Source: Clostridia bacterium
GTDB lineage: Bacteria > Bacillota > Clostridia > Oscillospirales > SIG627
Assembly (NCBI GenBank): GCA_017440805.1
Contig: JAFSGN010000009.1
Span: forward strand, 4,302 to 68,301
DNA length: 64,000 nt
Direction: 5' to 3'
Part shown: one piece after another, positions 9,651 through 59,013 of the stretch
Layout: each line of letters starts with the position of its first letter
Position numbering within the stretch: the stretch's first letter is position 1
Translations under genes and position numbers: made by a program
Notes under the pieces: generated by a model
Told to the model about the DNA's origin: nothing
Seen by the model: the letters and a program-made list of their open reading frames with translations, nothing else
The model's database searches: none

Positions 9651-9668
9651 ATAATTCTTCCAAAAGTA

Positions 9669-9697
9669 TTGATTTTTTTGAAAACTTGTGATATAAT
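9669..9697 (+). promoter_or_regulatory. Sigma-A-type promoter (extended -10) of the rimP-nusA-infB operon
   Basis: TTGATT-17 nt-TGaTATAAT, about 180 nt upstream of rimP. Confidence 0.5.
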
Positions 9698-9728
9698 AAC
9701 AATAGTACAATTTAAGATGAAGGATGAT

Positions 9729-9762
9729 GAAAGAGTGGTTGACGCCACTCTTTCAAGTTTTA
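9729..9762 (+). promoter_or_regulatory. Terminator-like hairpin in the rimP leader (candidate attenuator)
   Basis: A perfect 10-bp stem GAAAGAGTGG/CCACTCTTTC with a 6-nt loop, followed by AAGTTTTA. It lies about 30 nt downstream of the predicted TSS. Confidence 0.35.
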
Positions 9763-9876
9763 TATAAGCAAACAGACAAAAAATTCAATCAATCCGAATA
9801 AATCCGGCAAATATAAAACGATATCCCGAAAATCCACAATTCTTGTTTATTATTTATTTATATACAGGAGGAACAA

Positions 9877-10368: not shown

Positions 10369-10380
10369 AGAACAACAAAA

Positions 10381-35097: not shown

Positions 35098-36564
35098 TTA
35101 TAGTACGGTATCGCAAAGACCGAAAACGGTAAGATTTACAAGTCCCGGAGTAATTCCCTTCGGCGCACCCAGTATTTTCAGTCTTACGGCACAGGTTCTT
35201 ACTGTATCAAATTCACGGTAATCAACCACAAGGTCCCGGTCATTTTCCGATGCATCTACCAGTGTATGCCAGTTTGTCTGTTTTGTGTCCGATGCATATT
35301 CTACAACATATCTGAACGGCCCGGGATTTATTCCGTTTTCGGTATCCATACCGATATCACGCCACAAAAGACGAATTGAGGAAACATTATAAAAAGTTTC
35401 GTTTCTTCCCACTGTATAAGTGATACAGGGTTGTTTGTCATCTTCGGCAGGCTGCCACCAGGTCAATACGCTTTCGTCTGAAGCATATATAGGCTCTCTT
35501 CCTTCTTTGAAACTGGTTGCACAAGGCCACACATTAAATGTCAAAGGCAGAAGTCCCGCACTGTTTCCTTCTTCAGGATGATTAAGTACACCGGGAGCAT
35601 ATTGAGGTGTTTCGGTAATACCGGGGCAGAAAATCTCGCCGTTTTCATCCACACCTACAGGGTCCATACCGATACGCCGTTCAAATTTATGGTTGAATCC
35701 GAAAACAGAAGAATAAAACATCCATAAAGTATCATTGGGACCTTTTACAATACTTCCGTGCCCTGCGCCTTTTACAACTCCGTATCGGCTCTCGGCAAGT
35801 GGGTTGTGGTTTTTCTGAGGTCTGAAACCTGAAAGAGGTCCCTGGTCGGAATATACCACCGCATTTACATATCCCGAATACTCTGTTCCGCATCCCGAAT
35901 ACATAAGATAGTATCTGTTGCCGATTTTAAACGCCCACTGTCCTTCTATCCAGCCCATGCGTCTGTTTTGATTATATTCTCCTGTGCATTGCCACTGTTT
36001 TGTCTTGTCAAATTCATTTATAACAACCGGCTCGGTTATAAGCATCCAGGGTTTGTCCGGGTCAAGTTCAGCACCCACGGTACTGGTATAATATTCAACA
36101 TCCCTTTCTCCGCAAATGTCCTTATCACTGCTGCCCTCGTGCCAGTAAAAATAAAGTCTGTCTCCGTCTGCAAGATAGCATCCGTCAGGCACTTTCATAT
36201 GATTTCCTTTTGTATCGGTAAGCATTCCGCAAAGTTTAAAAGGTCCTTCCGGACTGTCGGCGCAATACACCTCAGGTCTGCTATGACCGGAAAGATACCA
36301 TTTACCCCTAAACTCAACGATAGCAGGGCTGTAATTTACATTATCAACGCCTATATCTATCTTTTTCCAGTTTACAAAATCCTCACTTACATATGCCAGT
36401 TTATAACTGGGGTACATATACCATTTACCGTCATGGTATACAACACTTGGATCTCCCATTGAACGGTAATCGTTGATTCCTGACTGTTCCTTTGGCACTC
36501 TTACATCGTCTCTGTATCCGCTGGGCATATCCTCTACCGGAAGAGGATTACAGTATGTTTTCAT
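35098..36564 (-). CDS. Glycoside hydrolase family 43 protein with C-terminal discoidin (F5/8 type C)-like domain; no signal peptide
   Basis: NP.P..GDPSVVYHDGKWYMYPS and the GH43 five-blade pattern. The C-terminus NVSSIRLLWRD..YVVEYASD..WHTL is discoidin-like. The ATG at 36564 follows AAAGGA. Confidence 0.8.
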   Translation of the reverse strand: MKTYCNPLPVEDMPSGYRDDVRVPKEQSGINDYRSMGDPSVVYHDGKWYMYPSYKLAYVSEDFVNWKKIDIGVDNVNYSPAIVEFRGKWYLSGHSRPEVYCADSPEGPFKLCGMLTDTKGNHMKVPDGCYLADGDRLYFYWHEGSSDKDICGERDVEYYTSTVGAELDPDKPWMLITEPVVINEFDKTKQWQCTGEYNQNRRMGWIEGQWAFKIGNRYYLMYSGCGTEYSGYVNAVVYSDQGPLSGFRPQKNHNPLAESRYGVVKGAGHGSIVKGPNDTLWMFYSSVFGFNHKFERRIGMDPVGVDENGEIFCPGITETPQYAPGVLNHPEEGNSAGLLPLTFNVWPCATSFKEGREPIYASDESVLTWWQPAEDDKQPCITYTVGRNETFYNVSSIRLLWRDIGMDTENGINPGPFRYVVEYASDTKQTNWHTLVDASENDRDLVVDYREFDTVRTCAVRLKILGAPKGITPGLVNLTVFGLCDTVL

Positions 36565-36637
36565 AACAGGATTCCTTTCGTAATACAAAAGATTTTTTTA
36601 TTGCAGACGAATTATAGCATATGCACTATAAAAAGTC

Positions 36638-36673
36638 AACAGGTATTTCAAAAATTGAAATACCTGTTTTTTT
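36638..36673. terminator. Hairpin terminator downstream of carB-dapF
   Basis: AACAGGTATTTCAA/TTGAAATACCTGTT 14-bp stem. There is a T7 run on the plus side and GACTTTTT on the minus side. Confidence 0.55.
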
Positions 36674-36679
36674 AACTTA

Positions 36680-39600
36680 TTAATACTGTATTTCGCCCTC
36701 ATAAATCAATGAGGCTGTTCCTGTCAGATATACGGCATCGTCTGTGTAGTTTACAATAACATCTCCGCCTTTGAGTTTGACGGTTATATCTTCATCCTTA
36801 CTGCACATTCCGTTTTCAACTGCCGCAACAACTGCCGCACAGGCACCTGTTCCGCAAGCAACTGTTTCTCCGTTTCCTCGTTCCCAAACACGCATTTTCA
36901 ATGTATTTTTATTTACAAGGCGGACAAACTCGGTGTTGGTCCGTTCAGGAAAAAGCGGTGAGTTTTCAAACAACTGTCCTACCGTCTGAACATCAACATT
37001 ATCAACACGGTCGCAGAACACAACGCAGTGAGGGTTACCAAAAGAGACACAGGTAATATCGTATTCCTTTTCACCCACGGTAACCTTGCGGTTTACCGCA
37101 ATATCACCATCCAGATTAACAGGAATATCTGCAACCTTAAGGGAAGCCTTGCCCATATCAACCTCAACCGAACTTACAACGGAATTCATGATATACAGTT
37201 TCAGTTTACGAACACCTGACGGAGTTTCAACAGTCATAACTTCCTTGGGAACAAATCCATAGTCATATAGGAATTTTCCAACACAGCGTATGGCATTGCC
37301 CGCCATTTTTCCTTCGCTGCCATCAATATTGAACATACGCATTTTTGCATCGGCAACATCTGATTTTTCAATAAGCAGAAGTCCGTCCGCACCGATGCTG
37401 TAATGACGGTTAGTGTAGTTAACCGCAAGAGATTCAGGACATGAAATATCGCCGTTCATATTATTTAAAACAATGTAGTCGTTACCTGTTCCCTGCATTT
37501 TGTAGAATTTCAGTTTTTTGCGGGAAGAACGAAGGTCATTGATATTTACAAGTTCGGTATTGTTCTGTGTAAATCTTCCCAGCAATATATCGGCAAGAGC
37601 ATTTGCCGTATCAAGAGATGTTATGCAGGCAACCGAAAGTTGCAATGCACGGCGGTGAAGTCTGATATAATCATCGATAGAAGACTTCTTCTTTGCACCG
37701 GTATAGATAGTGTAAATAATCTTACCAGTTTCAAGAAGTTTTATCATATCGTCGCTGTGGCTGAGTTTATCTACCACCTCAACATCAATATCCAGCGAAG
37801 AAATTGCACGGGCAGTTCCCTCTGTTGCATATATCTTAAGACCCAGGTCATCAAGTTTCTTTGCAAGTTTTACAATTTCAAGTTGATCCTGCTTGCTTAC
37901 ACTTATAAGAACTCCGCGTCTGTGAGGGTCCTGAACATGTGATATATGGAAACCTGCCGAAACAAGTCCCTTGAAAAGTGCCTCTTCAAGTGTCTTTCCT
38001 ATACCCAGAACTTCTCCGGTAGACTTCATTTCAGGTCCGAGTGCCGAGTTTACATCGTTAAGTTTCTCAAAAGAGAACACAGGTACTTTTACCGAGAAAT
38101 AAGGCGGTGTCTTATAAAGTCCTGTTCCGTAACCCAGGGATTTAAGTGTTTGGCCAACCATTATTTTGGTTGCTATGTCAACCATAGGCACACCGGTTAC
38201 TTTGCTTATATAAGGTATTGTACGGGAAGCACGGGGATTAACCTCAATAACATAAAGTTCGTTCTGATAGATAAGGTACTGAATATTTACAAGTCCTTTG
38301 GTTCCCAGAGAAAGTGCAAGTTTAGTGGAGGACTCAATAACCTGATTCATCATTTTATCGTTTATGCTGTACGGAGGATAAACCGCAATTGAGTCACCGC
38401 TGTGTACGCCTGCGCGCTCGATATGCTGCATAATACCGGGGATAAGAACATCTTTTCCGTCTGATATAACATCAACCTCAAGTTCATTACCCATCATATA
38501 CTTATCAACAAGAACAGGATTTTCAATCTTCTGGGAAAGAATGATTTCCATATACTGCTCAACATCAGCCTGTGTATACGCAATTGTCATATTCTGACCG
38601 CCGATAACATATGAGGGGCGGAGAAGCACGGGATATCCCAGATTTTCTGCCGCTTCAAGCGCCTGTTCCAGTGTCATAACACCGATACCCTTGGGACGCT
38701 TGATATTAAAGGTTTCAAGAAGTGCATCAAATCTTTCTCTGTCTTCCGCAATGTCTATTCCGTCTGCAGATGTTCCGAGAATTGTTATATTGTTCTTTGC
38801 AAGGAATTTTGTAAGTTTTATTGCTGTCTGTCCGCCGAATGCCACAACAACACCGATAGGCTTTTCAATTTCGATTATATTCATAACATCTTCCGATGTC
38901 AGAGGTTCAAAGTAAAGACGGTCAGCAGTGTCAAAGTCTGTAGATACTGTTTCGGGGTTATTGTTTATTATAATAACCTCATAACCCAGTTTTTTCAGTG
39001 CCCATACACAGTGTACCGACGAATAATCGAACTCAATACCCTGACCTATACGGATAGGTCCTGAACCGAGAACTATAATTCTTTCCTTTTTACCTGTGAT
39101 ATGGTCAAGTGCCTCGTTCTTAGTATCATACGATGAGTAGAAATAAGGTGTCATTGCCTTATATTCACCGCCACATGTATCAACTGTTTTATAGGAGGCA
39201 CTCAGGTGTTTTTTAACTTTTGTACCCGAAATGCGTTCGATTGCAGTATCGGTATATCCCAGTTTCTTACCTTCAAGGTAAAGTTCATCGGTAATATGAC
39301 CTACAATACTCTTCTCGTAATTTACAAGATTCTTTATTTTATTTATAAACCATTTGTCTATACGGGTTATAGCATTGATTTCATCCACAGACACACCTCT
39401 CTGGAGTGCCTTGAATACCGTAAAAATACGCACATCATCAACATCTTCAAGTTTTTTCTTGATGTTATGTACCTGGTTGAGTGACTTCATATCCAGAGTG
39501 TCCTGAGATATTTCGGCACCTCTTACCGCTTTCATAAGCGCCGCCTCAAAACTTTGTCCTATGGACATTACTTCTCCGGTCGCTTTCATCTGAGTGCCCA

Positions 39601-40714
39601 GTTTTCTTGATGCGTTTACAAATTTATCAAAAGGCCATTTGGGGAATTTGATTACCGCATAATCCACGGTAGGCTCAAAACATGCCCAGGTTGTGCCTGT
39701 AATATCGTTTTTGATTTCGTCAAGTGTATATCCGAGAGCAATTTTTGTGGTAACTTTTGCAATGGGGTATCCTGTCGCTTTGGATGCGAGGGCTGATGAA
39801 CGGGATACACGGGGGTTTACCTCAATAACTGCATATTCAAAACTGTCGGGATTGAGAGCAAACTGACAGTTACATCCGCCTTCTATACCAAGTTCGCTTA
39901 TAATCTCAAGAGATGCGGAACGAAGCATCTGAAACTCTTTATTTGCCAGAGTCATTGCAGGGGCAACAACTATACTGTCGCCTGTGTGAACGCCTACCGG
40001 GTCAACATTTTCCATACTGCACACCGCAATAACATTGCCCACCGCGTCACGCATTACTTCAAATTCTATTTCTTTCCATCCGTAGATGTACTTTTCAACC
40101 AATACCTGAGTGATAGGCGAAAGCATAAGTCCGTTGGAAGCAACTGTAACAAGTTCCTCCTCGTTATATGCAACGCCGCCGCCTGCACCGCCAAGAGTAA
40201 AAGCAGGTCGGATGATTACGGGATATCCTATTTTCTTTGCAATGGATACGGCAGTATCAACATCATTTGCTATATCGGAAGGAATGCAGGGCTGGTTTAT
40301 TTTCTGCATTGTATCACGGAAAAGTTGTCTGTCTTCCGCTTTGTCAATAGCCTCTGCGCTTGTTCCCAAAAGTCTTACTCCCATGCTGTCAAGGAAACCG
40401 CACTTTGAAAGTTGCATTGCAATTGTAAGACCTGTCTGTCCGCCGAGAGAGGCAAGAAGACTGTCGGGTTTTTCTTTTTCTATAATTCTCTTTATTGTGT
40501 CAACTGTAAGAGGTTCAAGGTATATTTCGTCAGCAAGTGCCTTATCGGTCATAATGGTAGCAGGGTTTGAGTTCACAAGAACAACATTGAGTCCTGCCTC
40601 TTTCAGAACACGACATGCCTGTGCGCCTGCGTAGTCAAACTCAGCCGCCTGACCAATTACAATAGGTCCTGAACCTATAACAAGAACTTTCTTTATACTG
40701 GTGTTCAACGGCAT
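36680..40714 (-). CDS. carB: Carbamoyl-phosphate synthase large subunit fused in frame to a C-terminal diaminopimelate-epimerase-like (DapF) domain
   Basis: 1344-aa ORF. Residues 1 to about 1067 are a full CarB (two ATP-grasp halves plus an MGS-like domain). There is no stop before ..SSRKKLKFYKMQGTGNDYIV.., which opens a 277-aa DapF fold. Confidence 0.9.
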   Translation of the reverse strand: MPLNTSIKKVLVIGSGPIVIGQAAEFDYAGAQACRVLKEAGLNVVLVNSNPATIMTDKALADEIYLEPLTVDTIKRIIEKEKPDSLLASLGGQTGLTIAMQLSKCGFLDSMGVRLLGTSAEAIDKAEDRQLFRDTMQKINQPCIPSDIANDVDTAVSIAKKIGYPVIIRPAFTLGGAGGGVAYNEEELVTVASNGLMLSPITQVLVEKYIYGWKEIEFEVMRDAVGNVIAVCSMENVDPVGVHTGDSIVVAPAMTLANKEFQMLRSASLEIISELGIEGGCNCQFALNPDSFEYAVIEVNPRVSRSSALASKATGYPIAKVTTKIALGYTLDEIKNDITGTTWACFEPTVDYAVIKFPKWPFDKFVNASRKLGTQMKATGEVMSIGQSFEAALMKAVRGAEISQDTLDMKSLNQVHNIKKKLEDVDDVRIFTVFKALQRGVSVDEINAITRIDKWFINKIKNLVNYEKSIVGHITDELYLEGKKLGYTDTAIERISGTKVKKHLSASYKTVDTCGGEYKAMTPYFYSSYDTKNEALDHITGKKERIIVLGSGPIRIGQGIEFDYSSVHCVWALKKLGYEVIIINNNPETVSTDFDTADRLYFEPLTSEDVMNIIEIEKPIGVVVAFGGQTAIKLTKFLAKNNITILGTSADGIDIAEDRERFDALLETFNIKRPKGIGVMTLEQALEAAENLGYPVLLRPSYVIGGQNMTIAYTQADVEQYMEIILSQKIENPVLVDKYMMGNELEVDVISDGKDVLIPGIMQHIERAGVHSGDSIAVYPPYSINDKMMNQVIESSTKLALSLGTKGLVNIQYLIYQNELYVIEVNPRASRTIPYISKVTGVPMVDIATKIMVGQTLKSLGYGTGLYKTPPYFSVKVPVFSFEKLNDVNSALGPEMKSTGEVLGIGKTLEEALFKGLVSAGFHISHVQDPHRRGVLISVSKQDQLEIVKLAKKLDDLGLKIYATEGTARAISSLDIDVEVVDKLSHSDDMIKLLETGKIIYTIYTGAKKKSSIDDYIRLHRRALQLSVACITSLDTANALADILLGRFTQNNTELVNINDLRSSRKKLKFYKMQGTGNDYIVLNNMNGDISCPESLAVNYTNRHYSIGADGLLLIEKSDVADAKMRMFNIDGSEGKMAGNAIRCVGKFLYDYGFVPKEVMTVETPSGVRKLKLYIMNSVVSSVEVDMGKASLKVADIPVNLDGDIAVNRKVTVGEKEYDITCVSFGNPHCVVFCDRVDNVDVQTVGQLFENSPLFPERTNTEFVRLVNKNTLKMRVWERGNGETVACGTGACAAVVAAVENGMCSKDEDITVKLKGGDVIVNYTDDAVYLTGTASLIYEGEIQY
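36683..37513 (-). other. DapF-like domain; first catalytic Cys replaced by Ala
   Basis: FNIDGSEGKM-A-GNAIRC, with a GCG codon at 37301-37303 where DapF has CGNG. FGNPHCV and ERGNGETVACGTGA are retained. Confidence 0.8.
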
Positions 40715-41781
40715 ACCTTTTCATCCTCCATCATCTTGCAGAATTTGTCTGTCATTTTCATTGCCTCGGTGGGACCCGGGCATGCTTCGGGCGGGAACTG
40801 GAGAGTAAATGCTTTAAGTGATGGGTAATCCATTCCTTCGCAAGTATTGTCATTTACATTAACATGAGTAACTACCGCATCTTTGGGAAGTTTTTCTATG
40901 TCAACGGCATATCCGTGACTTTGCGATGTTATAAATACTCTGCCTGTTTCAACATTCTTTACGGGGTTTCCCCCACGGTGACCGTGGGGCATCTTGAAGG
41001 TATCTCCCCCAAGGGCAAGCGCCATAAGTTCATGTCCCATACCTACACCGAAAATCGGTTTTTTTCCGATTAATTTTTTGATTTGCTCTATACACAAAGA
41101 ATTGTCCTTCGGGTCGCCGGGACCGTTGGACAGCATAATGCCGTCAGGGGAAAGTTTAAAAACTTCCTCTGCCGTTGTATTATAAGGCAGACATGTTACA
41201 TGACAGCCTCTTTTTGTAAGAGTTGCAATAAGACTCTCGGTAACACCGTAATTAAGCAGTGCCACTCTGTACTTTTCTTTCCCCTGTGCGGGATATTCTT
41301 TTACAGTATTATCGGAAACCGTTTTTACTGCGTCGGAAATACGATAATTCTTTACTGCAGAAAGTACCTCATCAGTAACCTCATTTACAACAGCCGCATT
41401 CATACAACCGTTTTCCCGTATAATTTCCGTAAGTTCACGGGTATCAATTCCGTAAATTCCGGGGATTTCATATTGCTTCAAAAATTCGTCAAGAGTCATT
41501 TCACAACGGAAATTTGACGGGGTGTCGCAATACTCTCTCACAACATATCCCTTGAGTTGCGGTTTTGAACTTTCAAAGTCCTCTTTCGCAAGGCCGAAAT
41601 TGCCTACAAGAGGGAATGTGTGCATTACTATCTGTCCGTAAAAGGACGGGTCGGTAAGAATTTCGGTATATCCGCCGACACCTGTGGTGAAAACAATTTC
41701 CCCCACAGTGTCGCCGTCAAATCCAAAGCCTTTGCCTTCAAATATTTTTCCGTTTTCCAAAACAAGAAATTTCTTTTTCAT
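40705..41781 (-). CDS. carA: Carbamoyl-phosphate synthase small (glutaminase) subunit
   Basis: Triad context GVGMGHELM (where canonical CarA has the nucleophile Cys in G(I/V)CLGHQ, so Cys->Met here, not pursued) and HGHRGGNPV. 10-nt overlap with the carB start. Confidence 0.95.
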   Translation of the reverse strand: MKKKFLVLENGKIFEGKGFGFDGDTVGEIVFTTGVGGYTEILTDPSFYGQIVMHTFPLVGNFGLAKEDFESSKPQLKGYVVREYCDTPSNFRCEMTLDEFLKQYEIPGIYGIDTRELTEIIRENGCMNAAVVNEVTDEVLSAVKNYRISDAVKTVSDNTVKEYPAQGKEKYRVALLNYGVTESLIATLTKRGCHVTCLPYNTTAEEVFKLSPDGIMLSNGPGDPKDNSLCIEQIKKLIGKKPIFGVGMGHELMALALGGDTFKMPHGHRGGNPVKNVETGRVFITSQSHGYAVDIEKLPKDAVVTHVNVNDNTCEGMDYPSLKAFTLQFPPEACPGPTEAMKMTDKFCKMMEDEKVCR

Positions 41782-41800: not shown

Positions 41801-42700
41801 TTATTTCATCAATTTTACAAGTACTGCCTTTTGTGCGTGTAATCTGTTTTCCGCCTCGTCAAATATTTCAGGATGCTCCTCAAACACCTTATCGGTTATT
41901 TCTTCCTCGCGGTGTGCCGGCAGACAGTGAAGAACCATTGCATCTTTTTTAGCCCAGCCCATAACACTGTCGTTAATCTGGTAGTTTTTGAAAACAACCT
42001 TACGCTTTTCCGCCTCACCTTCCTGTCCCATTGACGCCCATACATCAGTATAAAGAACATCGGCGTTCTCAGCGGCAGCCTTGATATCCTCTGTGCAGGT
42101 GAATTTTCCGTTTTTCTCTGCCCACGCCATAATATCTTTATCAGGCTTATAATCTGCAGGGCATGCTACGGAAACCTCCATACCCATCTTAATTCCGCCA
42201 ACTATAAGTGAGTTTGCCATATTGTTTCCGTCGCCGATAAAGCACATCTTCAGACCTTTAAGTGTCTTTTTGTATTCGCGTATTGTCATAAGGTCTGCAA
42301 GGACCTGACATGGATGTGCATAGTCGGTAAGTCCGTTTATTATAGGTATTGAGCCGTATTCTGCAAGTGCCTCAACTTCGCTCTGTTCATAGGTACGAAT
42401 CATTATACCGTCAAGATACCTTGAAAGAACGCGGGCGGTATCTTTTACGGGTTCACCTCTTCCTATCTGCAGGTCGTTGGAACTGAGGAACAGTGCTGTA
42501 CCGCCAAGTTGGTACATACCCGCTTCAAAGGACACACGGGTGCGGGTTGAGGATTTCTGGAATATCATTCCCAGTGTTTTTCCTTTGAGAATGGTGTGTT
42601 CAACCCCCATCTTGCGCTCACTCTTAAGTTTGTCCGCAAGGTCAAGTATTTCGGTTATCTCATCCGTAGACAAGTCCGAAAGTTTTAAAAGATGCTTCAT
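41801..42700 (-). CDS. argF: Ornithine carbamoyltransferase
   Basis: STRTRVSFE, HPCQ and HCLP motifs. The ATG at 42700 follows AAAGGA. Confidence 0.93.
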   Translation of the reverse strand: MKHLLKLSDLSTDEITEILDLADKLKSERKMGVEHTILKGKTLGMIFQKSSTRTRVSFEAGMYQLGGTALFLSSNDLQIGRGEPVKDTARVLSRYLDGIMIRTYEQSEVEALAEYGSIPIINGLTDYAHPCQVLADLMTIREYKKTLKGLKMCFIGDGNNMANSLIVGGIKMGMEVSVACPADYKPDKDIMAWAEKNGKFTCTEDIKAAAENADVLYTDVWASMGQEGEAEKRKVVFKNYQINDSVMGWAKKDAMVLHCLPAHREEEITDKVFEEHPEIFDEAENRLHAQKAVLVKLMK

Positions 42701-42819
42701 ATATATCAGTCCTTTCATTAATTCAAACTGAAAACCGCAGGGATATTCTTCATAAAAATTGTACTGTCATATTACCTCATGGAAATGACCGTTACTATTG
42801 TTTTATAACCGAAGAATTA

Positions 42820-43983
42820 TTACTCTCCTGCTACCTGTCTGATTATGCTTACCGCCTGTTCAAGAAGATTATCGGGAATATTAAGTGCAGGAAGAAGTCT
42901 GACTTTATTCTTTGCCGTAAGAGGTACAACACCTTTTTCTATACAGCCCAGAACAACCTCTTTTGCAGGTTTCTCGGTTTCGATACCCAGCATAAGTCCC
43001 ATTCCGCTTATACTTTTAATGCCTTTTGCTCCTGTGAGGGAGTCAATAATGTATTTACTTTTCCGATTAACCTCATTACAAAGGTTATCGTCTATTCTCT
43101 CAATTATGCTGAGAGCACCTGCGGCACACACGGGATTTCCGCCGAAAGTTGAACCGTGGGAACCGGGAGTAATGGTATCTTTGGTTTTTTCACCCATAAG
43201 AGTTGCTCCCATGGGAAGTCCGCCGGCAAGTCCTTTTGCGGTAGAAACAATATCCGGCATAATGCCGTAATTCATATAACAGTAGAGTTGTCCGGTCCTG
43301 CCGTTACCGGTCTGTACTTCATCAATAATCAGCAGTATATCCTTTTTTTTGCATATTTCAGCAACTTTTTTCACATATTCAGATTCAAGTGCTATAACTC
43401 CGCCCTCGCCCTGAACAAGTTCCATCATAATCGCACAGACTTTATCATCAATAAGACCTGCAATACTGTCTGCATCATTTGGCTCGGCATACCGGAATCC
43501 CTCTGTGAAAGGTCCGAAGGTTGTATGGAACACATCCTGTCCCGTTGCCGCAAGAGTAGTGACTGTTCTTCCGTGAAAACTGTTTTTAAGCGTTATTATT
43601 ACATTCCGTCCGTCGCCGTATTTATCAAATGAATATTTTCTTGCACATTTTATGGCACATTCGTTTGCCTCTGCTCCCGAATTTGAGAAAAAGACTTTTT
43701 TCATTCCGCTTTTTTCGCAAAGCATTTTGGCAAGTTTTGCCTGGGGAGAGGTATAATAAAGATTTGAAGTATGCTGAAGTTTTGAAAGTTGCTCTTTTAC
43801 AGCCTCCTGCCACACCTCATCACAAAGTCCGAAAGTGTTTACCGCTATACCGCTTCCCATATCTATGTACTTTTTGCCGTTTTCGTCATACAACAGTGAG
43901 CCTTCGCCTTTTTCAAACTGCAAATCAAATCTGCCGTATGACGACGCAATATATTGGCTGTCAAATGATTTAATGTCGTTCAT
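42820..43983 (-). CDS. argD: Acetylornithine aminotransferase
   Basis: Class III aminotransferase with SGAEANE, DEVQTG.GRTG and STAKGLAGG (PLP Lys). Confidence 0.92.
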   Translation of the reverse strand: MNDIKSFDSQYIASSYGRFDLQFEKGEGSLLYDENGKKYIDMGSGIAVNTFGLCDEVWQEAVKEQLSKLQHTSNLYYTSPQAKLAKMLCEKSGMKKVFFSNSGAEANECAIKCARKYSFDKYGDGRNVIITLKNSFHGRTVTTLAATGQDVFHTTFGPFTEGFRYAEPNDADSIAGLIDDKVCAIMMELVQGEGGVIALESEYVKKVAEICKKKDILLIIDEVQTGNGRTGQLYCYMNYGIMPDIVSTAKGLAGGLPMGATLMGEKTKDTITPGSHGSTFGGNPVCAAGALSIIERIDDNLCNEVNRKSKYIIDSLTGAKGIKSISGMGLMLGIETEKPAKEVVLGCIEKGVVPLTAKNKVRLLPALNIPDNLLEQAVSIIRQVAGE

Positions 43984-44068
43984 AATAAACCTCTTGTATC
44001 CGGTTAAAAGTTTTGGTTGGTTTTTTCATATTTTATAGTGTTAGACTCACTGTTTAAGTGCTGTGTGT

Positions 44069-44920
44069 TTAAACAAACATAGTACCGATACCTTCATCGG
44101 TAAGTGTTTCTATAAGTATCGCATGAGGAATTCTGCCGTCTATAATAAAGACCTTTTTAACACCCTCGTTTATTGCTTCCACACAGCAGTTTGCCTTAGG
44201 TATCATTCCGCCGGATATTACACCGCTGTTTATAAGTCCGGGGACCTCCGAAGCCTTTATTTTGGAAATAAGGGTTGACGGGTCATCTTTATCACGCATT
44301 ATTCCGCTGATGTCTGTCATGGAAATAAGACTTTCAGCCTTGAGCGCACCCGCTATTCTTGCTGCCGCCGTATCTGCATTGATATTGTATATATTACCGT
44401 CTTTGTCATATCCTACGGTTGAAATTATGGGGATATATCCGTTTTGCAGAAGGTCTGCAATAGGCTGCGGATTAATTTTCTTTATTTCCCCTACATAACC
44501 CAGGTCGGGATTGAGCATTTCCGCCTCAATCATTCCGCCGTCCATTCCGCAAAGTCCTATGGCGTTTCCGCCGATATTACCCATAAGCGTAACCAGACTC
44601 TTGTTGATTTTACCGGCAAGTACCATCTGGACTATCTGTGCCGTTTCTTCATCGGTTACACGAAGTCCGTTTCTGAACTCGCTCTTTTTTCCCATTTTGT
44701 CCATCATCTCGGTGATTTCAGGACCTCCGCCGTGAACAAGCACAACCTTGACACCTATAAGTGACAACAGCACAAGGTCTCCCATAACGGCATTTTTCAA
44801 CTCGCTGTTTATCATGGCGTTTCCGCCGTATTTTACAACGACAATTTTATTGTTATACGATTGTATGTAAGGAAGTGCATGTATAAGCACCTCTGCCCTT
44901 TCGGCGTTGGAAAGATTCAT
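44069..44920 (-). CDS. argB: Acetylglutamate kinase
   Basis: VVKYGGNAM, VLVHGGGP and NINADTAA. Confidence 0.95.
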   Translation of the reverse strand: MNLSNAERAEVLIHALPYIQSYNNKIVVVKYGGNAMINSELKNAVMGDLVLLSLIGVKVVLVHGGGPEITEMMDKMGKKSEFRNGLRVTDEETAQIVQMVLAGKINKSLVTLMGNIGGNAIGLCGMDGGMIEAEMLNPDLGYVGEIKKINPQPIADLLQNGYIPIISTVGYDKDGNIYNINADTAAARIAGALKAESLISMTDISGIMRDKDDPSTLISKIKASEVPGLINSGVISGGMIPKANCCVEAINEGVKKVFIIDGRIPHAILIETLTDEGIGTMFV

Positions 44921-45013
44921 AAAAATTCCTTTCTTTATTGGAATGTGCGGAAATTCTTTGTTCTGCCCGGCTAATAATGCATTGGGAAAACTTATATAAA
45001 ACAGGTTTTATCT

Positions 45014-46237
45014 TCAGGTTCTGTAGTCTCCGTTTATCTTGACATAGTCGTATGTAAGGTCGCATCCGCGGGCAACGGCTTCGCTTTCACCCGAATTGAG
45101 ATTTATGTCAATGCATATCTCGTTTTCGGAGAGAACTTTTTTCGCAACCTCTTCGGAAAACTCTATTCCGCTTCCGTTGCGGCAAACTTCAACTTTACCC
45201 GCCGAAGAGATGAAATCCACATCAACCTTATTCACATCAATATCTGCACCGCTGTAACCTATGGCACACAGTACCCGTCCCCAGTTAGCATCTGCACCGA
45301 ACATTGCGGCCTTGAGAAGACTGGAACAAACAACGGATTTTGCAACGGTACGGGCAACTGTCTTATCCGATGCACCATGTACTTTGCATTCGAGAAGTTT
45401 TGTTGCACCCTCTCCGTCTTTTGCAATCATACGGCAAAGATATGCTGTAACCCGCGAAAGTGCCTCTTTGAACACATCAAAATCCGCACCTTCACAAGTA
45501 ATCTTTCTGTTACCTGCCATACCATTGGCAAGTATTGATACCATATCATTGGTAGAGGTATCTCCGTCAATACTTACCATATTAAAACTGTCGGTTATAT
45601 CTTCACTGAGGGCTTTCTGAAGCATCTCCGGTGAGATGTCCGCATCTGTGGTTATAAACACCAGCATTGTTGCAAGGTTGGGGTGAATCATTCCGCTTCC
45701 CTTTGCTATGCCGCCGATACGGCAACTCTTACCGTCAATGCTGAATTCTACTGCGGTTTCCTTAAGAAGTGTATCCGTGGTCATGATTCCCTCGGCAGCA
45801 GATGTGCTGTTGTCACCAAGACCTTTGCATAAATCTTCCATTCCTTCCGCAATGGGAAGTATATCAAGCGGCTGACCTATAACACCTGTGGAGGCTACTA
45901 TAACATCATTTGCAGGAACGCCTGTATGCTTTTGGACAAGTCCGCACATTGCTTTTGCAATCTCAATACCGTTGGCATTGCAGGTATTGGCATTTCCGCT
46001 GTTGCATATAACCGCTTGTGCAATACCGTTTGCAATATTTTCACGGGTTACATAAATGGGTGCACCCTTCACAAGATTTTTTGTGTACACACTTGCGGCG
46101 GCGCAAGGGACCTCACTCAATATGAGAGAAAGATCCTTTTTTGTTTTGTTTTTGCGTATTCCGCAATGAATACCGTTTGCTCTGAATCCTTTTGCGGCAC
46201 ACACTCCGCCTGTGATTGTATTTATCGTACTGTTCAT
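45014..46237 (-). CDS. argJ: Bifunctional ornithine acetyltransferase / N-acetylglutamate synthase
   Basis: The autoprocessing site context ATMLVFITTDA and GMIHPN are present. Confidence 0.95.
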   Translation of the reverse strand: MNSTINTITGGVCAAKGFRANGIHCGIRKNKTKKDLSLILSEVPCAAASVYTKNLVKGAPIYVTRENIANGIAQAVICNSGNANTCNANGIEIAKAMCGLVQKHTGVPANDVIVASTGVIGQPLDILPIAEGMEDLCKGLGDNSTSAAEGIMTTDTLLKETAVEFSIDGKSCRIGGIAKGSGMIHPNLATMLVFITTDADISPEMLQKALSEDITDSFNMVSIDGDTSTNDMVSILANGMAGNRKITCEGADFDVFKEALSRVTAYLCRMIAKDGEGATKLLECKVHGASDKTVARTVAKSVVCSSLLKAAMFGADANWGRVLCAIGYSGADIDVNKVDVDFISSAGKVEVCRNGSGIEFSEEVAKKVLSENEICIDINLNSGESEAVARGCDLTYDYVKINGDYRT

Positions 46238-46239
46238 AA

Positions 46240-47178
46240 TTAATCTCCTATAGTCAGGCCGAAGTCATCATCCAACCCCAGCATTATATTCATACACTGC
46301 ATTGCGGCACCCGAAGCACCTTTTCCCAGATTATCAAACTGAGATATGAGAACACATCTGTCATTGTTGCCGGTAATAATTATTTCCATATCGTCTCTGC
46401 CTGCCATATCGTTTGACGCAACAAAGCCTTCGGAAACAACCGGTCTGACTTTTACCATCTTACTGTTTCTGTATTTCTCACAGAACATATTGTATATATC
46501 ATCAATCGATGGGTTACCTTTTAAAAGTTTGGGGTAAACAGGTATTGAAACCTGCATACCGCTGTAAAAATCACACACAGTAGGCAAGAATACCGGCTCG
46601 GAAGAAAGTCCTGTTATATACTTCATCTCCGGCAGATGCTTATGATTCTGAGTAACTCCGTACTGTCTGGGGCTGTCAAACTCTGCCGGACGGCCGGTGT
46701 CCTGATATTCCGTTATCATCTTTTTACCGCCGCCGCTGTAGCCTGTAAGAGAAAAACAGGTAACAGGATAATCCGGAGTCATCATACCGCATTCCGTAAG
46801 AGGATATACCAATGATACAAATCCACTTGCATGGCATCCAGGCACTGCTATTCTTTTTCCGTTTATAACAGCAGTTCTGAACCTTTCGCCAAGTTCCGCA
46901 AATCCATACGCCCACTCAGGATTTGTCCGATGCGCTGTAGACGCGTCTATAATATGAACCTGAGGATTATCGCAAAGAGAAACCGACTCTTTAGCCGCCA
47001 CATCAGGCAGACAGAGAAAGGTTATGTCGGAACTGTTTATAAGTTTCTTTCTTTCATCGGGGTCTTTTCTCTTGCTGTCGTCTATTTCCAGAATTTCTAT
47101 ATCCTTACGGCAGGAAAACCTTTCGAATATTTTCAGGCCAGTTGTTCCCTCTTTGCCGTCGATAAACACTTTATACAT
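46240..47178 (-). CDS. argC: N-acetyl-gamma-glutamyl-phosphate reductase (short type)
   Basis: MYKVFIDGKEGTTGL and the catalytic PGCHASG. The ATG at 47178 follows GGAGA, and I discarded the ORF-track extension to 47262. Confidence 0.92.
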   Translation of the reverse strand: MYKVFIDGKEGTTGLKIFERFSCRKDIEILEIDDSKRKDPDERKKLINSSDITFLCLPDVAAKESVSLCDNPQVHIIDASTAHRTNPEWAYGFAELGERFRTAVINGKRIAVPGCHASGFVSLVYPLTECGMMTPDYPVTCFSLTGYSGGGKKMITEYQDTGRPAEFDSPRQYGVTQNHKHLPEMKYITGLSSEPVFLPTVCDFYSGMQVSIPVYPKLLKGNPSIDDIYNMFCEKYRNSKMVKVRPVVSEGFVASNDMAGRDDMEIIITGNNDRCVLISQFDNLGKGASGAAMQCMNIMLGLDDDFGLTIGD

Positions 47179-47233
47179 CTTAACTCTCCATTTATTCCGC
47201 AGCAAATTTGCCGCATTTTCCACATTGTATAAT

Positions 47234-47262
47234 ATTATAATACAAAATGCAAAAAAAGTCAA
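47234..47262 (-). promoter_or_regulatory. Consensus sigma-A promoter of the arg-car operon
   Basis: The minus strand reads TTGACT-17 nt-TATAAT. Confidence 0.6.
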
Positions 47263-53910: not shown

Positions 53911-55299
53911 ATGAGAACAATCTATGTTACAGACATTACTCTTAAGAAACTTTCAGAGGACCGTGAAATATCACTGCTTTTCCGCGAAAAATCCGCCATC
54001 GCTAATTGTGCCGATGCACTCGGTGTAAATGCTATAGAGTTGCCTGCTGTAAAAAATCTTCGTGAGGATACCATTATTTATAAAACCATTGCACAAAATG
54101 TTCAGCATGCAACCCTTGCCGTTCCGGTGGGATTCAACAAGCAGGATGTTGCGTCTGTATGGGAATGCATCAAAGACGCAAAACAACCTCGCCTTCAGGT
54201 TGAACTTCCCGTTTCAACAATTCAGATGGAATATACATATCATGTAAAGCAGTCGGTTATGCTCGAAAAAATTACCGAACTCATAAAAGAAGCAAAAACA
54301 TATTGCAATGATGTGGAATTTTCAGCACTGGATTCCACACGCGCCGATGATGACTTTCTTATCTCAGCCGCAAAAGAAGCAGAGTCCGCCGGTGCAAGTA
54401 TGATAACTCTTTGCGATAATGCCGGAGTTTCGACTCCCCGTCAAATCGAAGAGATGGTTGAAAAAATCAAACAAGCGGTAAGCATTCCAGTATATATTCA
54501 GGTTTCTGACCGTATAAATATGGGTGTTGCATCATCCTTTGCAGCGATTTCAAAAGGTGCAGACGGCATTAAATGTGCCATTGCCGGCAAAGACATTCTT
54601 TTAACCGGTGAATTTTCCGACGCAATGAGTGTCTGCGGCACTCAGATTGATGCTAAAATTGAACTTAACACCACAAAAATTCATGCAAGTATTGACGAAA
54701 TGCTGTCAAACATAAATCACAAAAACTATGAAAACGAAGTATCCGTAAGCGACAGAAAAAAGATTTTGCTTGATTCCGATTCTTCCATCTCCCAGGTTGC
54801 TCACGCAGCAGAGGTTTTGGGATACCAACTTTCTGATTCGGATATGGGAAATGTATATAAAGCACTGACACAGGTATGGGAAAAGAAAGGTGCAGTAGGT
54901 TCAAAAGAATTTGAAGCGTTGATAGCAAGTTCTGCCATGCAGGCTCCTTCGACATACCATTTTGAAACATACACAACAACAAGTAGCAATGCGACAAGTT
55001 CAATGTCACAGGTTACACTTAAATGCAATGACGAAATAATATGCGGTGTCAGCAGCGGAGACGGTCCGATAGACTCTGCTTTCCGTGCAATCGAACAGTG
55101 CATAGGACATCACTATGAACTTGATGATTTTCAGGTTCAGTCCGTAACAGAAGGTAAAGAAGCCCTGGGTTCTGCGTTGGTAAGACTTCGCAACAACGGA
55201 AAACTTTATTCAGGTAACGGAACATCAACCGATATTGTCGCTGCAAGCATAAGAGCATATATAAATGCACTTAACAAAATTGTTTTTGAGGAGGCATAA
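53911..55299 (+). CDS. 2-isopropylmalate-synthase-like protein with degenerate active site but intact C-terminal LeuA regulatory/dimerisation domain
   Basis: HMGL-type barrel similarity, but DTTLRDGEQ is replaced by DITLKKLSE and HxHND by QVSDR. The C-terminus GDGPIDSAFRAIEQ..VTEGKEALGSALVRLRNNGKLYSGNGTSTDIVAASIRAYINALNK is classic LeuA_dimer. Confidence 0.75.
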   Translation: MRTIYVTDITLKKLSEDREISLLFREKSAIANCADALGVNAIELPAVKNLREDTIIYKTIAQNVQHATLAVPVGFNKQDVASVWECIKDAKQPRLQVELPVSTIQMEYTYHVKQSVMLEKITELIKEAKTYCNDVEFSALDSTRADDDFLISAAKEAESAGASMITLCDNAGVSTPRQIEEMVEKIKQAVSIPVYIQVSDRINMGVASSFAAISKGADGIKCAIAGKDILLTGEFSDAMSVCGTQIDAKIELNTTKIHASIDEMLSNINHKNYENEVSVSDRKKILLDSDSSISQVAHAAEVLGYQLSDSDMGNVYKALTQVWEKKGAVGSKEFEALIASSAMQAPSTYHFETYTTTSSNATSSMSQVTLKCNDEIICGVSSGDGPIDSAFRAIEQCIGHHYELDDFQVQSVTEGKEALGSALVRLRNNGKLYSGNGTSTDIVAASIRAYINALNKIVFEEA

Positions 55300-55300
55300 A

Positions 55301-57760
55301 ATGAAGATAGTATTTTCAACCAAGGATGTAAGTCGTGCGACTTTCCTTGATACCTGCCGTTATGCCTTTGACTACGGATTTGAAGGTTTTGAAATATATG
55401 ATGCAATCAAAGAAAGAAGTTTTCATCACGACAGCATATTAAGGCGTGACCGCACTGCTGATGCCAAAAGAAAACTTGTAAACAGAAGTCTTTCGGTTTC
55501 GGCACTCCGTATGCCCGACGGTATTGATGACCAAAATACAACCGCGGATTCGGTGGTTAAATATGTAGATATGGCTTCGGCATCAGGGATTTCCAATGTC
55601 ATTGTACGCGTTAACAATAAAATTTCCTTTGGTGTCCTGGATGAAAAACTCTGCCGTGCCATAAAAAAGGCAGAAAATACGGATGTCAATATCCTGTTTG
55701 AAACTGTGGGGGCATTGGCAAACACAGAAAATGTAATTGATATAATAAACCACTTTTCTTCTGCTGTCATCGGTGCTTCCTGGAATGTCAGAGGTACATA
55801 TTTTGATGCAGGGGAAACATCCGAGGCAACTATCAAAACTTTGGGTGCTTACATCAAGTATGTTCGTCTGGGAGATATGAAAGACGGAAAAACAGTCCTG
55901 ATTGGCGAGGGTGAACTTGATGTGGCAAAACTTATCGGTGCTCTTTCGTCGCTCAACTATGAAGGATATATTTGTGCGGCATGGAATGAGGAAATTAATG
56001 ATGCAGATATAGTTTTAACTCACTTTGCAAATTATATTTCACAACTGAACCGTGAAAAGAAATCTTTTGATAAAGCCTACTACAACAGAGATAAGACCGG
56101 AACATTTGTATGGAAAAAATACGATGTTATTGATGCCACTTTTTCCGATGTGCTTGACACTATGGTTGAAAATTACCCGGACCAGTATGCATTCAAGTAT
56201 CCCACTCTGGATTACACAAGAACTTATGAACAGTTCAGACGGGATGTGGATGATTGTGCGGCAGCCCTTATATCTCTCGGCGTAAAAGCAGGTGACCATG
56301 TTGCAGTCTGGGCAACAAATGTACCCGAATGGTTCATCACCTTCTGGGCAACAACAAAAATCGGCGCAGTTCTGGTTACTGTAAACACTGCGTATAAAAT
56401 TCATGAAATTGAATATCTTCTGAAACAGTCTGATACACATACTCTGGTTATGATTGAGTTTTGTAAAGACATCAATTACAAGGAAATTATTGAGGAACTC
56501 TGTCCGGAACTCAAAACTCTTACTCCCGGTCAACCCCTCTATTCTAAAAATCTTCCGTTCCTCAGAAATGTTATAACAGCAGGATTTTCTATGGACGGAT
56601 GTCTTACCTGGGAACAGATGCTTTCCCGTTCCTATCTTGTTCCCCGTGAAGAAGTAAGAAGACGCGCGTCCCTTGTTAAGCCTGACGATGTATGCAACAT
56701 GCAGTATACATCAGGTACAACAGGTTTCCCAAAAGGTGTTATGCTTACACACCGTAATATCGTTAACAACGGTAAAACTATCGGTGACAGAATGGATTTG
56801 TCAACAGCCGACCGTATGATGATTCAGGTGCCTATGTTCCATTGCTTCGGCATGGTGCTTTCAATGACATCAATGATGACTCACGGCGGAACACTTTGTC
56901 CCATTCCGTATTTCTCACCCAAGTCATCTCTTGCCTGTGTAAATGATGAGAAAATCACCTGCTTTAACGGTGTACCTACAATGTTTATTGCAATGTTTGC
57001 CCATCCTGATTTTGCAAAAACAGACTTTTCATATATGCGTACAGGTATAATGGCGGGTGCAAACTGCCCGGCAGATTTAATGCGCCGTGCATCTGTGGAA
57101 ATGAATATGCGTGAAATTATTTCGGTGTACGGTCAGACCGAGGCTTCCCCCGGATGTACCATGGGTGAAGTTAACGAAGACCTTGACCACAGAGTAGAAA
57201 CTGTCGGAAGTGCATTTCCCGGCGTTGAATGTAAGATTATTGACCCTGAAACAGGCAAAGAACTTCCCGACGGAGAGAGCGGTGAATTTGTTGCCCGCGG
57301 TTTCAATATTATGAAAGGCTATTACAAAATGCCGGAAGCAACCGCTCAGGCGATAGATGAAGACGGATGGCTCCATTCCGGCGACATTTGTATGAGAACA
57401 CCTGACGGATACTACAAGGTTACAGGTCGTCTTAAAGATATGATTATCCGCGGAGGAGAAAACTTATATCCAAGAGAGATTGAAGAGTTCTATCTTACAA
57501 ATCCGAAGGTACGCGATGTTCAGGTTGTGGGCGTACCCGACGAAAGATACGGTGAGGAATGTTGTGCCTGGGTTATTCTTCACAAGGGAGAAACTGCCGA
57601 CGAAAATGAAATGAAAGAATTCGGCAATGCTTCCATTGCAAGACATAAAGTGCCAAAATACTTCTTGTTTGTTGATAGCTTCCCAATGAACGCTGCAGGT
57701 AAAATTCTCAAATACAAAATGCGGGAGGAATCAGCCGAAAAATTAGGCCTTAAAAAATAA
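55301..57760 (+). CDS. Fusion protein: xylose-isomerase-like TIM-barrel (sugar-phosphate isomerase/epimerase family) domain plus FadD-type AMP-forming acyl-CoA ligase
   Basis: The N-terminal about 255 aa is a TIM-barrel family (GFEGFEI.., ..YEGYICAAWNEE). The C-terminal about 555 aa carries MQYTSGTTGFPKGVMLTH (A3), YGQTE, GWLHSGD and GKILKYKMRE. The ATG at 55301 follows GAGGAGG, 1 nt after the preceding stop. Confidence 0.85.
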   Translation: MKIVFSTKDVSRATFLDTCRYAFDYGFEGFEIYDAIKERSFHHDSILRRDRTADAKRKLVNRSLSVSALRMPDGIDDQNTTADSVVKYVDMASASGISNVIVRVNNKISFGVLDEKLCRAIKKAENTDVNILFETVGALANTENVIDIINHFSSAVIGASWNVRGTYFDAGETSEATIKTLGAYIKYVRLGDMKDGKTVLIGEGELDVAKLIGALSSLNYEGYICAAWNEEINDADIVLTHFANYISQLNREKKSFDKAYYNRDKTGTFVWKKYDVIDATFSDVLDTMVENYPDQYAFKYPTLDYTRTYEQFRRDVDDCAAALISLGVKAGDHVAVWATNVPEWFITFWATTKIGAVLVTVNTAYKIHEIEYLLKQSDTHTLVMIEFCKDINYKEIIEELCPELKTLTPGQPLYSKNLPFLRNVITAGFSMDGCLTWEQMLSRSYLVPREEVRRRASLVKPDDVCNMQYTSGTTGFPKGVMLTHRNIVNNGKTIGDRMDLSTADRMMIQVPMFHCFGMVLSMTSMMTHGGTLCPIPYFSPKSSLACVNDEKITCFNGVPTMFIAMFAHPDFAKTDFSYMRTGIMAGANCPADLMRRASVEMNMREIISVYGQTEASPGCTMGEVNEDLDHRVETVGSAFPGVECKIIDPETGKELPDGESGEFVARGFNIMKGYYKMPEATAQAIDEDGWLHSGDICMRTPDGYYKVTGRLKDMIIRGGENLYPREIEEFYLTNPKVRDVQVVGVPDERYGEECCAWVILHKGETADENEMKEFGNASIARHKVPKYFLFVDSFPMNAAGKILKYKMREESAEKLGLKK

Positions 57761-58691: not shown

Positions 58692-58956
58692 CGACTGTGA
58701 CGAGGACGGTCGGATTGTGAGGCCTTGAGAGAGTTGCCGGGTGGTGCGAGGCAATGGCGGAACTTTCCAATGACTTATCACCTCTGAGTCGAAGGACCGA
58801 AAAGTTTTACTTAGTAGACTCCTTCCGTAACGCTGCGTAAAAGCAAAGAACTTGTTTGAGTTCAGTAAGTGACGGAATACTTGTATTCCGTAATTTGAGT
58901 GGTACCGCGGGTTGTTATAACTCGTCTCAAAGTTATCTTTGGGGCGAGTTTTTTGT
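58692..58956 (+). promoter_or_regulatory. T-box leader (riboswitch) 2, specifier position reads AUC (Ile; tentative), transcription-attenuation type
   Basis: Base stem CGACT/AGTCG. K-turn GTGACGAGG/CCTCTGAG. ATC-A directly 5' of the CCTC helix (58777-58780). AGAGAG bulge, GGTGCGA distal loop, T-box GAGTGGTACCGCGG (58897-58910). Terminator CTCGTCTCAAAG/CTTTGGGGCGAG followed by T6. Confidence 0.8.
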
Positions 58957-59013
58957 TTTATTCGGATTTGTAAACAAATATCACATTTGTCAGATTTGAA
59001 AGGAGACAAAACA

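Follow-up and report, generated by a model that had tools for sequence, protein, structure and literature searches.

A carB::dapF gene fusion in the arginine operon of a Clostridia bacterium and the loss of one catalytic cysteine from its epimerase domain

Diaminopimelate epimerase (DapF) inverts one stereocentre by means of two cysteines on opposite faces, and Cys73Ala mutants of the Haemophilus influenzae enzyme show no epimerisation. CarB, the large subunit of the glutamine-hydrolysing carbamoyl-phosphate synthetase (CPSase; EC 6.3.5.5), binds its effectors ornithine, IMP and UMP inside its MGS-like domain. The present study describes a gene in which these two proteins are joined end to end, found in a 64,000-nucleotide stretch of a Clostridia bacterium of the order Oscillospirales (GCA_017440805.1, contig JAFSGN010000009.1, positions 4,302 to 68,301; hereafter the window). 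Its product is a CPSase large subunit that carries at its C terminus a complete DapF-like domain in which the first catalytic cysteine is replaced by alanine. The literature that we searched holds no paper on a CarB::DapF fusion, including under dead-enzyme forms of DapF and DapF2, and describes no CarB with an appended amino-acid-racemase fold; the main text of a large reconstruction of gut amino-acid pathways likewise leaves the fusion unmentioned. A first-pass annotation of the window had regarded the pairing as not known, and this holds for the literature, but not for the sequence databases, which contain thousands of copies annotated merely as CarB, the only name given at the source being "carbamoyl-phosphate synthase large subunit".

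Several described systems resemble the window domain in part. In mammalian CPS1 a glutaminase domain persists although its catalytic cysteine is gone, and the trans-3-hydroxy-L-proline (T3LHyp) dehydratases are Cys/Thr members of the proline racemase superfamily. Within the DapF family, DcsC and PddB are not known to have lost either cysteine, and the substrate of DcsC differs from diaminopimelate (DAP) at its distal end. DcsC (O-ureidoserine racemase, 7VDY) and PddB (2,4-diaminobutyrate racemase) no longer act on DAP; unlike DcsC, the window domain has an unchanged distal site and has lost one cysteine. In arylmalonate decarboxylase (AMDase), of the Asp/Glu racemase superfamily, Gly74 replaces one cysteine and Cys188 is the sole proton donor (PMC4996985). 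As in the window domain, one catalytic cysteine of the T3LHyp dehydratases and AMDase has been replaced and the other kept in an otherwise conserved pocket, and in AMDase, as in the clade to which the window protein belongs, the replacing residue is small (Gly). These enzymes, however, stand alone and have known leaving-group substrates, whereas the window domain is tethered to a CPSase. A non-catalytic role has a precedent in Escherichia coli DapF, which binds and stimulates the RNA pyrophosphohydrolase RppH (PMC6061791). In that complex (PDB 6D13) a DapF fold affects the activity of another enzyme by binding alone, although E. coli DapF is a separate, catalytically intact protein and RppH is unrelated to CPSase.

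The fused gene occupies the following positions.

36680..40714 (-): fused carB::dapF open reading frame (ORF), 1344 aa, from the ORF listing
37514..40714 (-): CarB part, residues 1-1067, from NCBIfam and Pfam matches
36683..37513 (-): DapF-like domain, residues 1068-1344, joined straight to CarB, from TIGR00652 and PF01678
36680..36682 (-): TAA stop of the fused ORF, read from the sequence

Both halves are matched well above the cutoffs of their families. The NCBIfam models NF003671 (CarB; 1445 bits against a cutoff of 599, residues 1-1044) and TIGR01369 (1411 bits, cutoff 1027) match the first part, and the DapF model TIGR00652 matches residues 1069-1343 (278.5 bits, cutoff 114.65), where Pfam finds DAP_epimerase (PF01678) in two matches (189.7 bits against 34.7). 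Pfam resolves the CarB part into CPSase_L_D1 and CPSase_L_D2, each present twice, CPSase_L_D3, and MGS at residues 946-1032, which amounts to two ATP-grasp synthetase units, an oligomerisation domain and an MGS-like allosteric domain, followed by a short conserved tail reading ..TELVNINDLRSSRKK. With the equivalog cutoff passed, the domain set complete and carA adjacent, the CarB part bears, as judged from its sequence, all the features of a working CPSase large subunit. The equivalog model of ordinary CarB matches the window protein full length, and carA lies upstream in both; the window protein differs in having about 277 extra residues past the allosteric domain. At the junction the residues read ..NINDLRSSRKK-LKFYKMQGTGNDY.., with neither a stop nor a linker between CarB and DapF, and the sequence linking the two is conserved among homologues. 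The internal methionine at the junction corresponds to Met6, conserved in DapF proteins within the motif F-x-K-M-x-G, and no GGAGG-like sequence lies upstream of it. A separate DapF made from this internal start was therefore rejected, the usual DapF start position being occupied by leucine. The fusion of carB to dapF is genuine, and the fused gene is the final one of the arginine operon. The first-pass annotation had described just such a gene, a complete CarB running without a stop into a full DapF fold past an internal ATG devoid of a Shine-Dalgarno sequence; its 1344-aa frame coincides exactly with the ORF listing, and the profile matches bear out the rest.

The alternative that the fusion is an artefact, in which a stop or frameshift between separate carB and dapF genes was lost or the alanine codon was called falsely, finds a parallel in one related genome (L001, GCA_054290425.1), where the gene is called as pieces of 878 and 449 aa. 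Contigs of the Logan collection from four runs cover positions 36600-38000 at a depth of 12-21 with 0 differences and 0 gaps, so that neither a stop nor a frameshift appears at the junction and the alanine codon is the same in each. This support rests on contigs assembled separately for each run rather than on raw reads, and a single gut metagenome study is the source of the four runs; the read-level verification of junction and codon that the first-pass annotation had proposed was accordingly reached only in part. Other ruminant gut metagenomes hold diverged relatives, one of them with a synonymous change of GCG to GCA at 37301, and more than 100 full-length homologues of independent origin share both the fusion and the alanine. 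In 80 different genomes, which came from many assemblers and studies, every locus with a complete ORF is fused and uninterrupted at about 1340-1370 aa, and the linker sequence is itself conserved. This comparative evidence makes an assembly artefact untenable, and we regard its probability as negligible. The split gene of L001 (contig JAZPGL010000014.1, positions 7307-11350) consists of two ORFs separated by a 57-nt gap and reflects a frameshift, a misassembly or a gene that recently became a pseudogene. Separately, many database entries for fragments, 449 or 501 aa long, begin at a conserved internal methionine of CarB.

Three codons in the DapF-like domain bear on catalysis.

37301..37303 (-): GCG, Ala in place of catalytic Cys73; ORF residue 1138, domain position 71, from the HMMER alignment
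36854..36856 (-): TGC, the retained second catalytic cysteine (Cys217 equivalent); ORF residue 1287, from the HMMER alignment
37481..37483 (-): AAC, the Asn11 equivalent in a GNDY motif; Asn in the window, Asp or Asn across the Ala/Gly clade described below

In HMMER alignments to solved DapF proteins, the window sequence (segkmAgnairc) places alanine where the H. influenzae (sevsqCgngarc) and Bacillus anthracis (segksCgnglrc) enzymes have Cys73. This upholds the reading of the first-pass annotation that a GCG codon interrupts the first thiol motif, and it also settles a possibility that the annotation had raised against itself, that the neighbouring cysteine of GNAIRC occupies the catalytic position. 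That cysteine aligns to the second, non-catalytic cysteine of canonical DapF proteins and is present in 113 of 119 stand-alone sequences. It was rejected as a substitute thiol, as canonical enzymes carry it alongside Cys73. The motifs NxDGSE, GNPH and ERGxGET, which the annotation had also listed, are all found. In H. influenzae numbering, with the roles of pocket residues as we take them to be from H. influenzae DapF-inhibitor structures, the window protein keeps the DAP-binding set Asn11, Asn64, Gly74-Asn75, Asn157, Asn190, Glu208-Arg209 and Gly218-Ser/Thr219. It also keeps His159, Glu208 and Cys217; thus the first catalytic thiol is absent and the second is present. The window domain has Asn11 together with Ala76 and hence none of the groups that might be proposed to stand in for the lost thiol.

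The fold is that of stand-alone DapF. An AlphaFold2 (AF2) model of the last 449 residues, covering the allosteric and DapF domains, has a mean predicted local distance difference test (pLDDT) score of 83.9; most of the DapF part exceeds 90, the linker falls to 55-64, and the predicted TM-score (pTM) is 0.67. Searched with Foldseek, the two-lobed DapF fold is recovered, and the top matches are closed, ligand-bound DapF structures (9mro, TM 0.90, root-mean-square deviation 2.4; 3ejx, TM 0.88), followed, after DapF, by DcsC, PhzF and hydroxyproline dehydratases. Across stand-alone DapF structures (EC 5.1.1.7; 1BWZ and 2GKE from H. influenzae, 2OTN from B. anthracis) the TM-score is 0.81-0.90. The B. 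anthracis protein is 40% identical to the window domain, and the DAP-binding residues, His159, Glu208 and Cys217 are common to both. What sets the window domain apart from the stand-alone enzymes is the change of Cys73 to Ala, fusion to the CarB C terminus, the loss of an aminotransferase neighbour and about 12 new clade-specific invariant residues.

The fusion is not peculiar to one genome; it belongs to a large family that has gone unremarked. The best 120 full-length homologues are all 1338-1355 aa long, are 72-87% identical to the window protein and all carry the DAP_epimerase domain; at the Cys73 position they have Ala in 116, Gly in 4 and Cys in none, and Cys217 is present in each of the 117 that could be parsed. 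Among species-representative genomes (one genome per species) there are at least 598 matches. The best 80 of these loci lie in 80 different genomes, mostly metagenome-assembled genomes from gut and rumen, whose names include Oscillospiraceae, Acutalibacteraceae, Ruminococcus, Eubacterium sp., Christensenellaceae and Saccharofermentans among others. The survey of CarB architectures in relatives that the first-pass annotation had recommended thus has a uniform outcome, in that the ORF is fused and about 1340-1370 aa long wherever the contig permits a complete ORF among these 80. The residue at the Cys73 position at the best loci is Ala in 51, Gly in 6 and Cys in 21, with 3 unparsed, and the Cys-type includes the loci of Ruminococcus sp. 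FC2018 and Ruminococcaceae bacterium AM07-15, which were taken as cultured strains. No second fused copy was found in any of the genomes of the best 80 loci, and in none does a Cys-type fusion (n=21) share a genome with an Ala/Gly-type fusion. A second dapF was found neither in the 64-kb window nor in the flanks (up to 10 kb per side) of the 80 related loci, where only about 0.5 hits would be expected by chance. In a clustered protein library, 135 of the best 150 matches have both cysteines and are mostly stand-alone DapF proteins; of the nine that lack Cys73, the seven examined are CarB-fusion pieces or fragments, and no full-length stand-alone DapF without Cys73 occurs among these 150.

Other DapF-containing fusions were met in the same material. 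Three proteins, P0371 (1046 aa), P0310 (692 aa) and P0373 (742 aa), begin with the CarB N-terminal motif MPLNR.IK.VL; their CPSase domains are eroded (about 30% identity, partial ATP-grasp matches), and their C-terminal DapF is intact with both cysteines, so that they look like a mirror image of the fusions that have lost a cysteine. In P0324 (776 aa) an N-terminal DapF with both cysteines is fused to Mur_ligase, Mur_ligase_M and Mur_ligase_C, which joins the epimerase to a likely DAP-adding enzyme of the cell wall.

The Cys-type and Ala/Gly-type fusions form two clades. They separate cleanly in two neighbour-joining trees, one restricted to CarB columns and the other to DapF columns, and the Gly variants are dispersed within the Ala clade. 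The simplest history would be one fusion with an intact DapF followed by a single loss of Cys73 that was never reverted. The fusion appears older than the cysteine loss because the fusions of the sister clade keep Cys73 and the aminotransferase neighbour of stand-alone dapF. The Cys-type fusions, exemplified by Ruminococcus sp. FC2018 (L079) and by P0243 (1349 aa, 62% identical to the window protein over its full length), have the architecture, linker and carA partner of the window protein but keep Cys73 and Asn11 and lie in a different context. Their neighbourhood runs carA, carB::dapF and a PatA-like class I/II aminotransferase, often followed by pyrG (CTP synthase); upstream of carA there are often glutamine synthetase genes and a small conserved 189-aa gene, which we suspect encodes an ANTAR-type regulator. 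The aminotransferase scores 543 bits against NF005816, below the cutoff of 620, and is 50-55% identical to the one encoded directly downstream of stand-alone dapF in other Clostridia. The order dapF-then-aminotransferase is seen at the Cys-type loci L029, L044, L046, L050, L055-L059, L062 and L079 and at a stand-alone locus (L082, 10001-12117). Since the aminotransferase neighbour is the same as that of stand-alone dapF, the Cys-type domain is presumably a true epimerase, and the Cys-type fusions are presumably true bifunctional CPSase-epimerases. The Ala/Gly-type gene is instead usually the last of the order argC-argJ-argB-argD-argF-carA-carB wherever the flank sufficed; these loci have no aminotransferase partner, and the genes downstream differ among genomes.

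Comparison of 235 Ala/Gly-type, 20 fused Cys-type and 119 stand-alone DapF domains indicates which parts of the domain have been kept. Of the 235 Ala/Gly-clade sequences, 226 have Ala and 9 have Gly at the Cys73 position and none has Cys, which all 119 stand-alone enzymes have; Cys217 is kept in 235/235. Although the 235 sequences are otherwise only about 60% identical, N62, D64, G65, N160, H162, N193, E211, R212, C220 and G221 are near-invariant (at least 234/235). The residues that hold the distal L-amino-acid end (Asn64, Asn157, Asn190, Glu208 and Arg209), the two helix N termini that hold the reacting carboxylate, His159 and Cys217 are conserved in all three groups. Every DAP-binding residue is conserved in the Ala/Gly clade except Asn11, which is Asp in 142 and Asn in 93; it is Asn in all 119 stand-alone enzymes and all 20 Cys-type fusions. 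Position 76, normally Gly or Ala, is S, C, A or N, and also V or G, in the Ala/Gly clade. The changes thus cluster around the reacting carbon (Cys73, Asn11 and position 76). About 12 residues are invariant only in this clade, among them N18, G21, T24, C25, S28, E49, R198, N201, N214, K246, N255, Y256 and the C-terminal Tyr, and two structural cysteines near Cys217 vary within it. Divergence of the DapF part relative to the CarB part gives a ratio of 1.37 for the Ala/Gly clade, against 1.43 for the Cys clade. The Ala/Gly-type domain is not a decaying relic, because its constraint equals that of the Cys clade and its active site has been selectively remodelled. Collectively, the alignments indicate that the loss of Cys73 is fixed in a monophyletic, species-rich clade under purifying selection as strong as that on the Cys clade.

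Two further thiols in the domain were considered. A Cys or Ser at position 76 (AGN-C/S-IRC) was rejected as a general substitute, because six residues (S, C, A, N, V and G) occur there among clade members and the window protein has Ala. At domain position 25 (..ISCPES.., window 37432-37440) 216 of 226 Ala-type sequences have Cys, and Cys-type fusions have Asn or Ser. This cysteine lies within a short insertion relative to most stand-alone DapF proteins, presumably on the first DapF helix, at its far end. A relocated thiol is unlikely, since the position is Ser in about 15% of Ala-type species; the cysteine could be an interface, redox or metal site.

What the Ala/Gly-type domain does is a matter of weighing. 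It is probably no longer an epimerase, yet still in use. Two-base epimerisation would be impossible because a second thiol is gone; as in pseudoenzyme domains, an essential residue has been lost while the fold and binding pocket are under purifying selection. The first-pass annotation had proposed either a neofunctionalised enzyme or a ligand-sensing appendage, and the constraint and remodelling described above favour precisely this pair of options, but the data cannot separate the two. We lean, with a probability of roughly 0.4, toward an epimerase-dead, DAP-binding regulatory module on the allosteric end of the arginine-pathway CPSase. The pocket would bind LL- or meso-DAP, or a very close analogue, without epimerising it; an open-to-closed movement of the lobes, or dimerisation of the DapF domain, would act on the adjacent allosteric domain of CarB; and the arginine-pathway CPSase would thereby be tuned to the supply of DAP, lysine and cell-wall precursors. 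A binding module appears the most likely role because the pocket stays selected and the domain hangs directly on the CarB allosteric domain. After the change of Asn11 to Asp the ammonium group that the reacting carbon bears would still find an acceptor, which suggests a ligand with a second amino group, as in DAP; ligands of the citrulline or N-acetylornithine kind, in which a planar nitrogen stands where DAP has its reacting carbon, were ranked below DAP, Asn11 changing only to Asp. In E. coli the arginine and DAP pathways share enzymes (ArgD/DapC). Several points weigh against a regulatory module. Cys217 (235/235), His159 and Glu208 are invariant while the structural cysteines vary, a pattern that would be easier to explain if the thiol still does chemistry. 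In the AF2 model the orientation of the DapF domain relative to the allosteric domain is undefined, which leaves no confident signalling interface. Control of an arginine CPSase by DAP is a presumed physiology, and the Ala/Gly-type genomes would have to obtain meso-DAP through another DapF, Ddh or DapF2.

The constancy of Cys217 is best explained by the main rival, an enzyme tied to the arginine CPSase in which this one thiol removes or delivers the alpha-proton on a single face of a substrate resembling DAP. With a small residue at position 73 there would be room for a leaving group or an extra substituent, and instead of epimerisation there might be elimination or dehydration, decarboxylation coupled to a stereospecific protonation, or proton exchange in one direction only, none of which has been described for the DapF fold. 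Such an enzyme would fit the invariance of Cys217, His159 and Glu208 beside variable structural cysteines, the interchange of Ala and Gly at a residue 73 that is always small, the remodelling of the pocket only on the side of the reacting centre, and the strong constraint (divergence ratio 1.37), and the T3LHyp dehydratases and AMDase offer precedents in the same or analogous folds. The operon, however, offers no candidate substrate or partner gene for a pathway, and the downstream genes vary. With the distal site unchanged, the substrate would have to be nearly identical to DAP, and we know of no beta-substituted or alpha-carboxylated DAP metabolite. The variation of Asn11 and position 76 within the clade would also be odd for a finely tuned active site. 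We therefore consider single-thiol chemistry unlikely, if still a serious contender.

The other two explanations fare less well. A residual epimerase, in which a non-thiol group (water in the Cys73 cavity, Asp/Asn11 or Ser/Cys76) takes over as acid/base, would account for the intact substrate-binding residues and Cys217, for a hidden Markov model score far above the DapF equivalog cutoff and for the Asp11 or Cys/Ser76 of many clade members. The lack of a second dapF in the window and around the 80 loci points the same way, but within 20 kb this absence means little when about 0.5 chance hits are expected. No candidate substitute is conserved across the clade, and the window, with Asn11 and Ala76, has none; nor do the best 150 library matches offer a full-length stand-alone precedent for the loss of Cys73. 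The H. influenzae Cys73Ala enzyme is inactive as an epimerase, and the clade has lost the aminotransferase partner of both stand-alone and Cys-type fused dapF. We give continued epimerisation little credence. A purely structural role, for example a DapF-type dimer that clamps two CarB subunits together, would be consistent with the linkerless join, with the retention as Tyr or Phe of the aromatic residue equivalent to Tyr268 of E. coli DapF, mutation of which disrupts the dimer (4ik0), and with the many clade-specific invariant residues outside known substrate contacts, which may form new interfaces. Such a role is nonetheless improbable, as it would leave unexplained why some 10 pocket residues and Cys217 are invariant or nearly so over 235 sequences that are about 60% identical.

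These findings bear on how the genomes are read. In hundreds of species of gut and rumen Clostridia the last 277 residues of the CPSase have been overlooked by annotation. Where the fusion is of the Cys-type, the hidden domain is probably the DapF of the organism, and reconstructions that look for a separate dapF could wrongly score the organism as lacking DAP or lysine synthesis. The converse mistake is likely for the Ala/Gly clade, where an above-cutoff DapF match would be counted as a working epimerase despite the missing catalytic cysteine. This clade constitutes a natural experiment in which one cysteine of a two-base racemase was apparently lost once and has been kept lost under strong selection. 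The outcome would be either a new metabolite-sensing input to arginine synthesis or new single-thiol chemistry; in the latter case the DapF family would have its own parallel to the hydroxyproline dehydratases and arylmalonate decarboxylase.

The fused gene closes an operon of the order argC-argJ-argB-argD-argF-carA-carB::dapF, which we take to resemble the argCJBD-carAB-argF cluster of Bacillus. The arginine genes span 41801..47262 (-) and each has an NCBIfam equivalog or subfamily match above cutoff; the start codon of carB overlaps the carA stop by 10 nt.

46240-47262 (-): argC
45014-46237 (-): argJ
44069-44920 (-): argB
42820-43983 (-): argD
41801-42718 (-): argF
40705..41781 (-): carA, CPSase small (glutaminase) subunit, NF009475 424 bits, cutoff 221
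36638..36668 (-): intrinsic-terminator-like hairpin with a 14-bp stem and a T-rich tail, 12 nt past the stop of the fused ORF, at the operon end

A promoter-like site with near-consensus TTGACT, a 17-nt spacer and TATAAT, together with a TG extension (36611-36639, minus strand), overlaps this terminator hairpin, and downstream of it lies a gene for a 496-aa glycoside hydrolase of family 43 (35098-36588, minus strand). Elsewhere in the 64-kb window the genes are ordinary housekeeping ones, with no dap or lys gene among them. At 53911-55299 (+) the window encodes a LeuA-like protein that the 2-isopropylmalate synthase models match in two separate stretches, below all cutoffs; HMGL-like and LeuA_dimer domains are present and the middle part is missing. 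Two acyl-CoA ligase ORFs, at 55265-57760 (+) and 58939-61314 (+), have N-terminal extensions of about 250-290 aa without a family match, which may stem from the calling of the ORF starts. Finally, a protein with a VanY-like D-Ala-D-Ala carboxypeptidase domain, below the cutoffs of the resistance families, lies near a peptidoglycan metallopeptidase-like protein (window 6307-7611, minus strand, and 3798-5663, plus strand), and the pair are ordinary genes of cell-wall remodelling.

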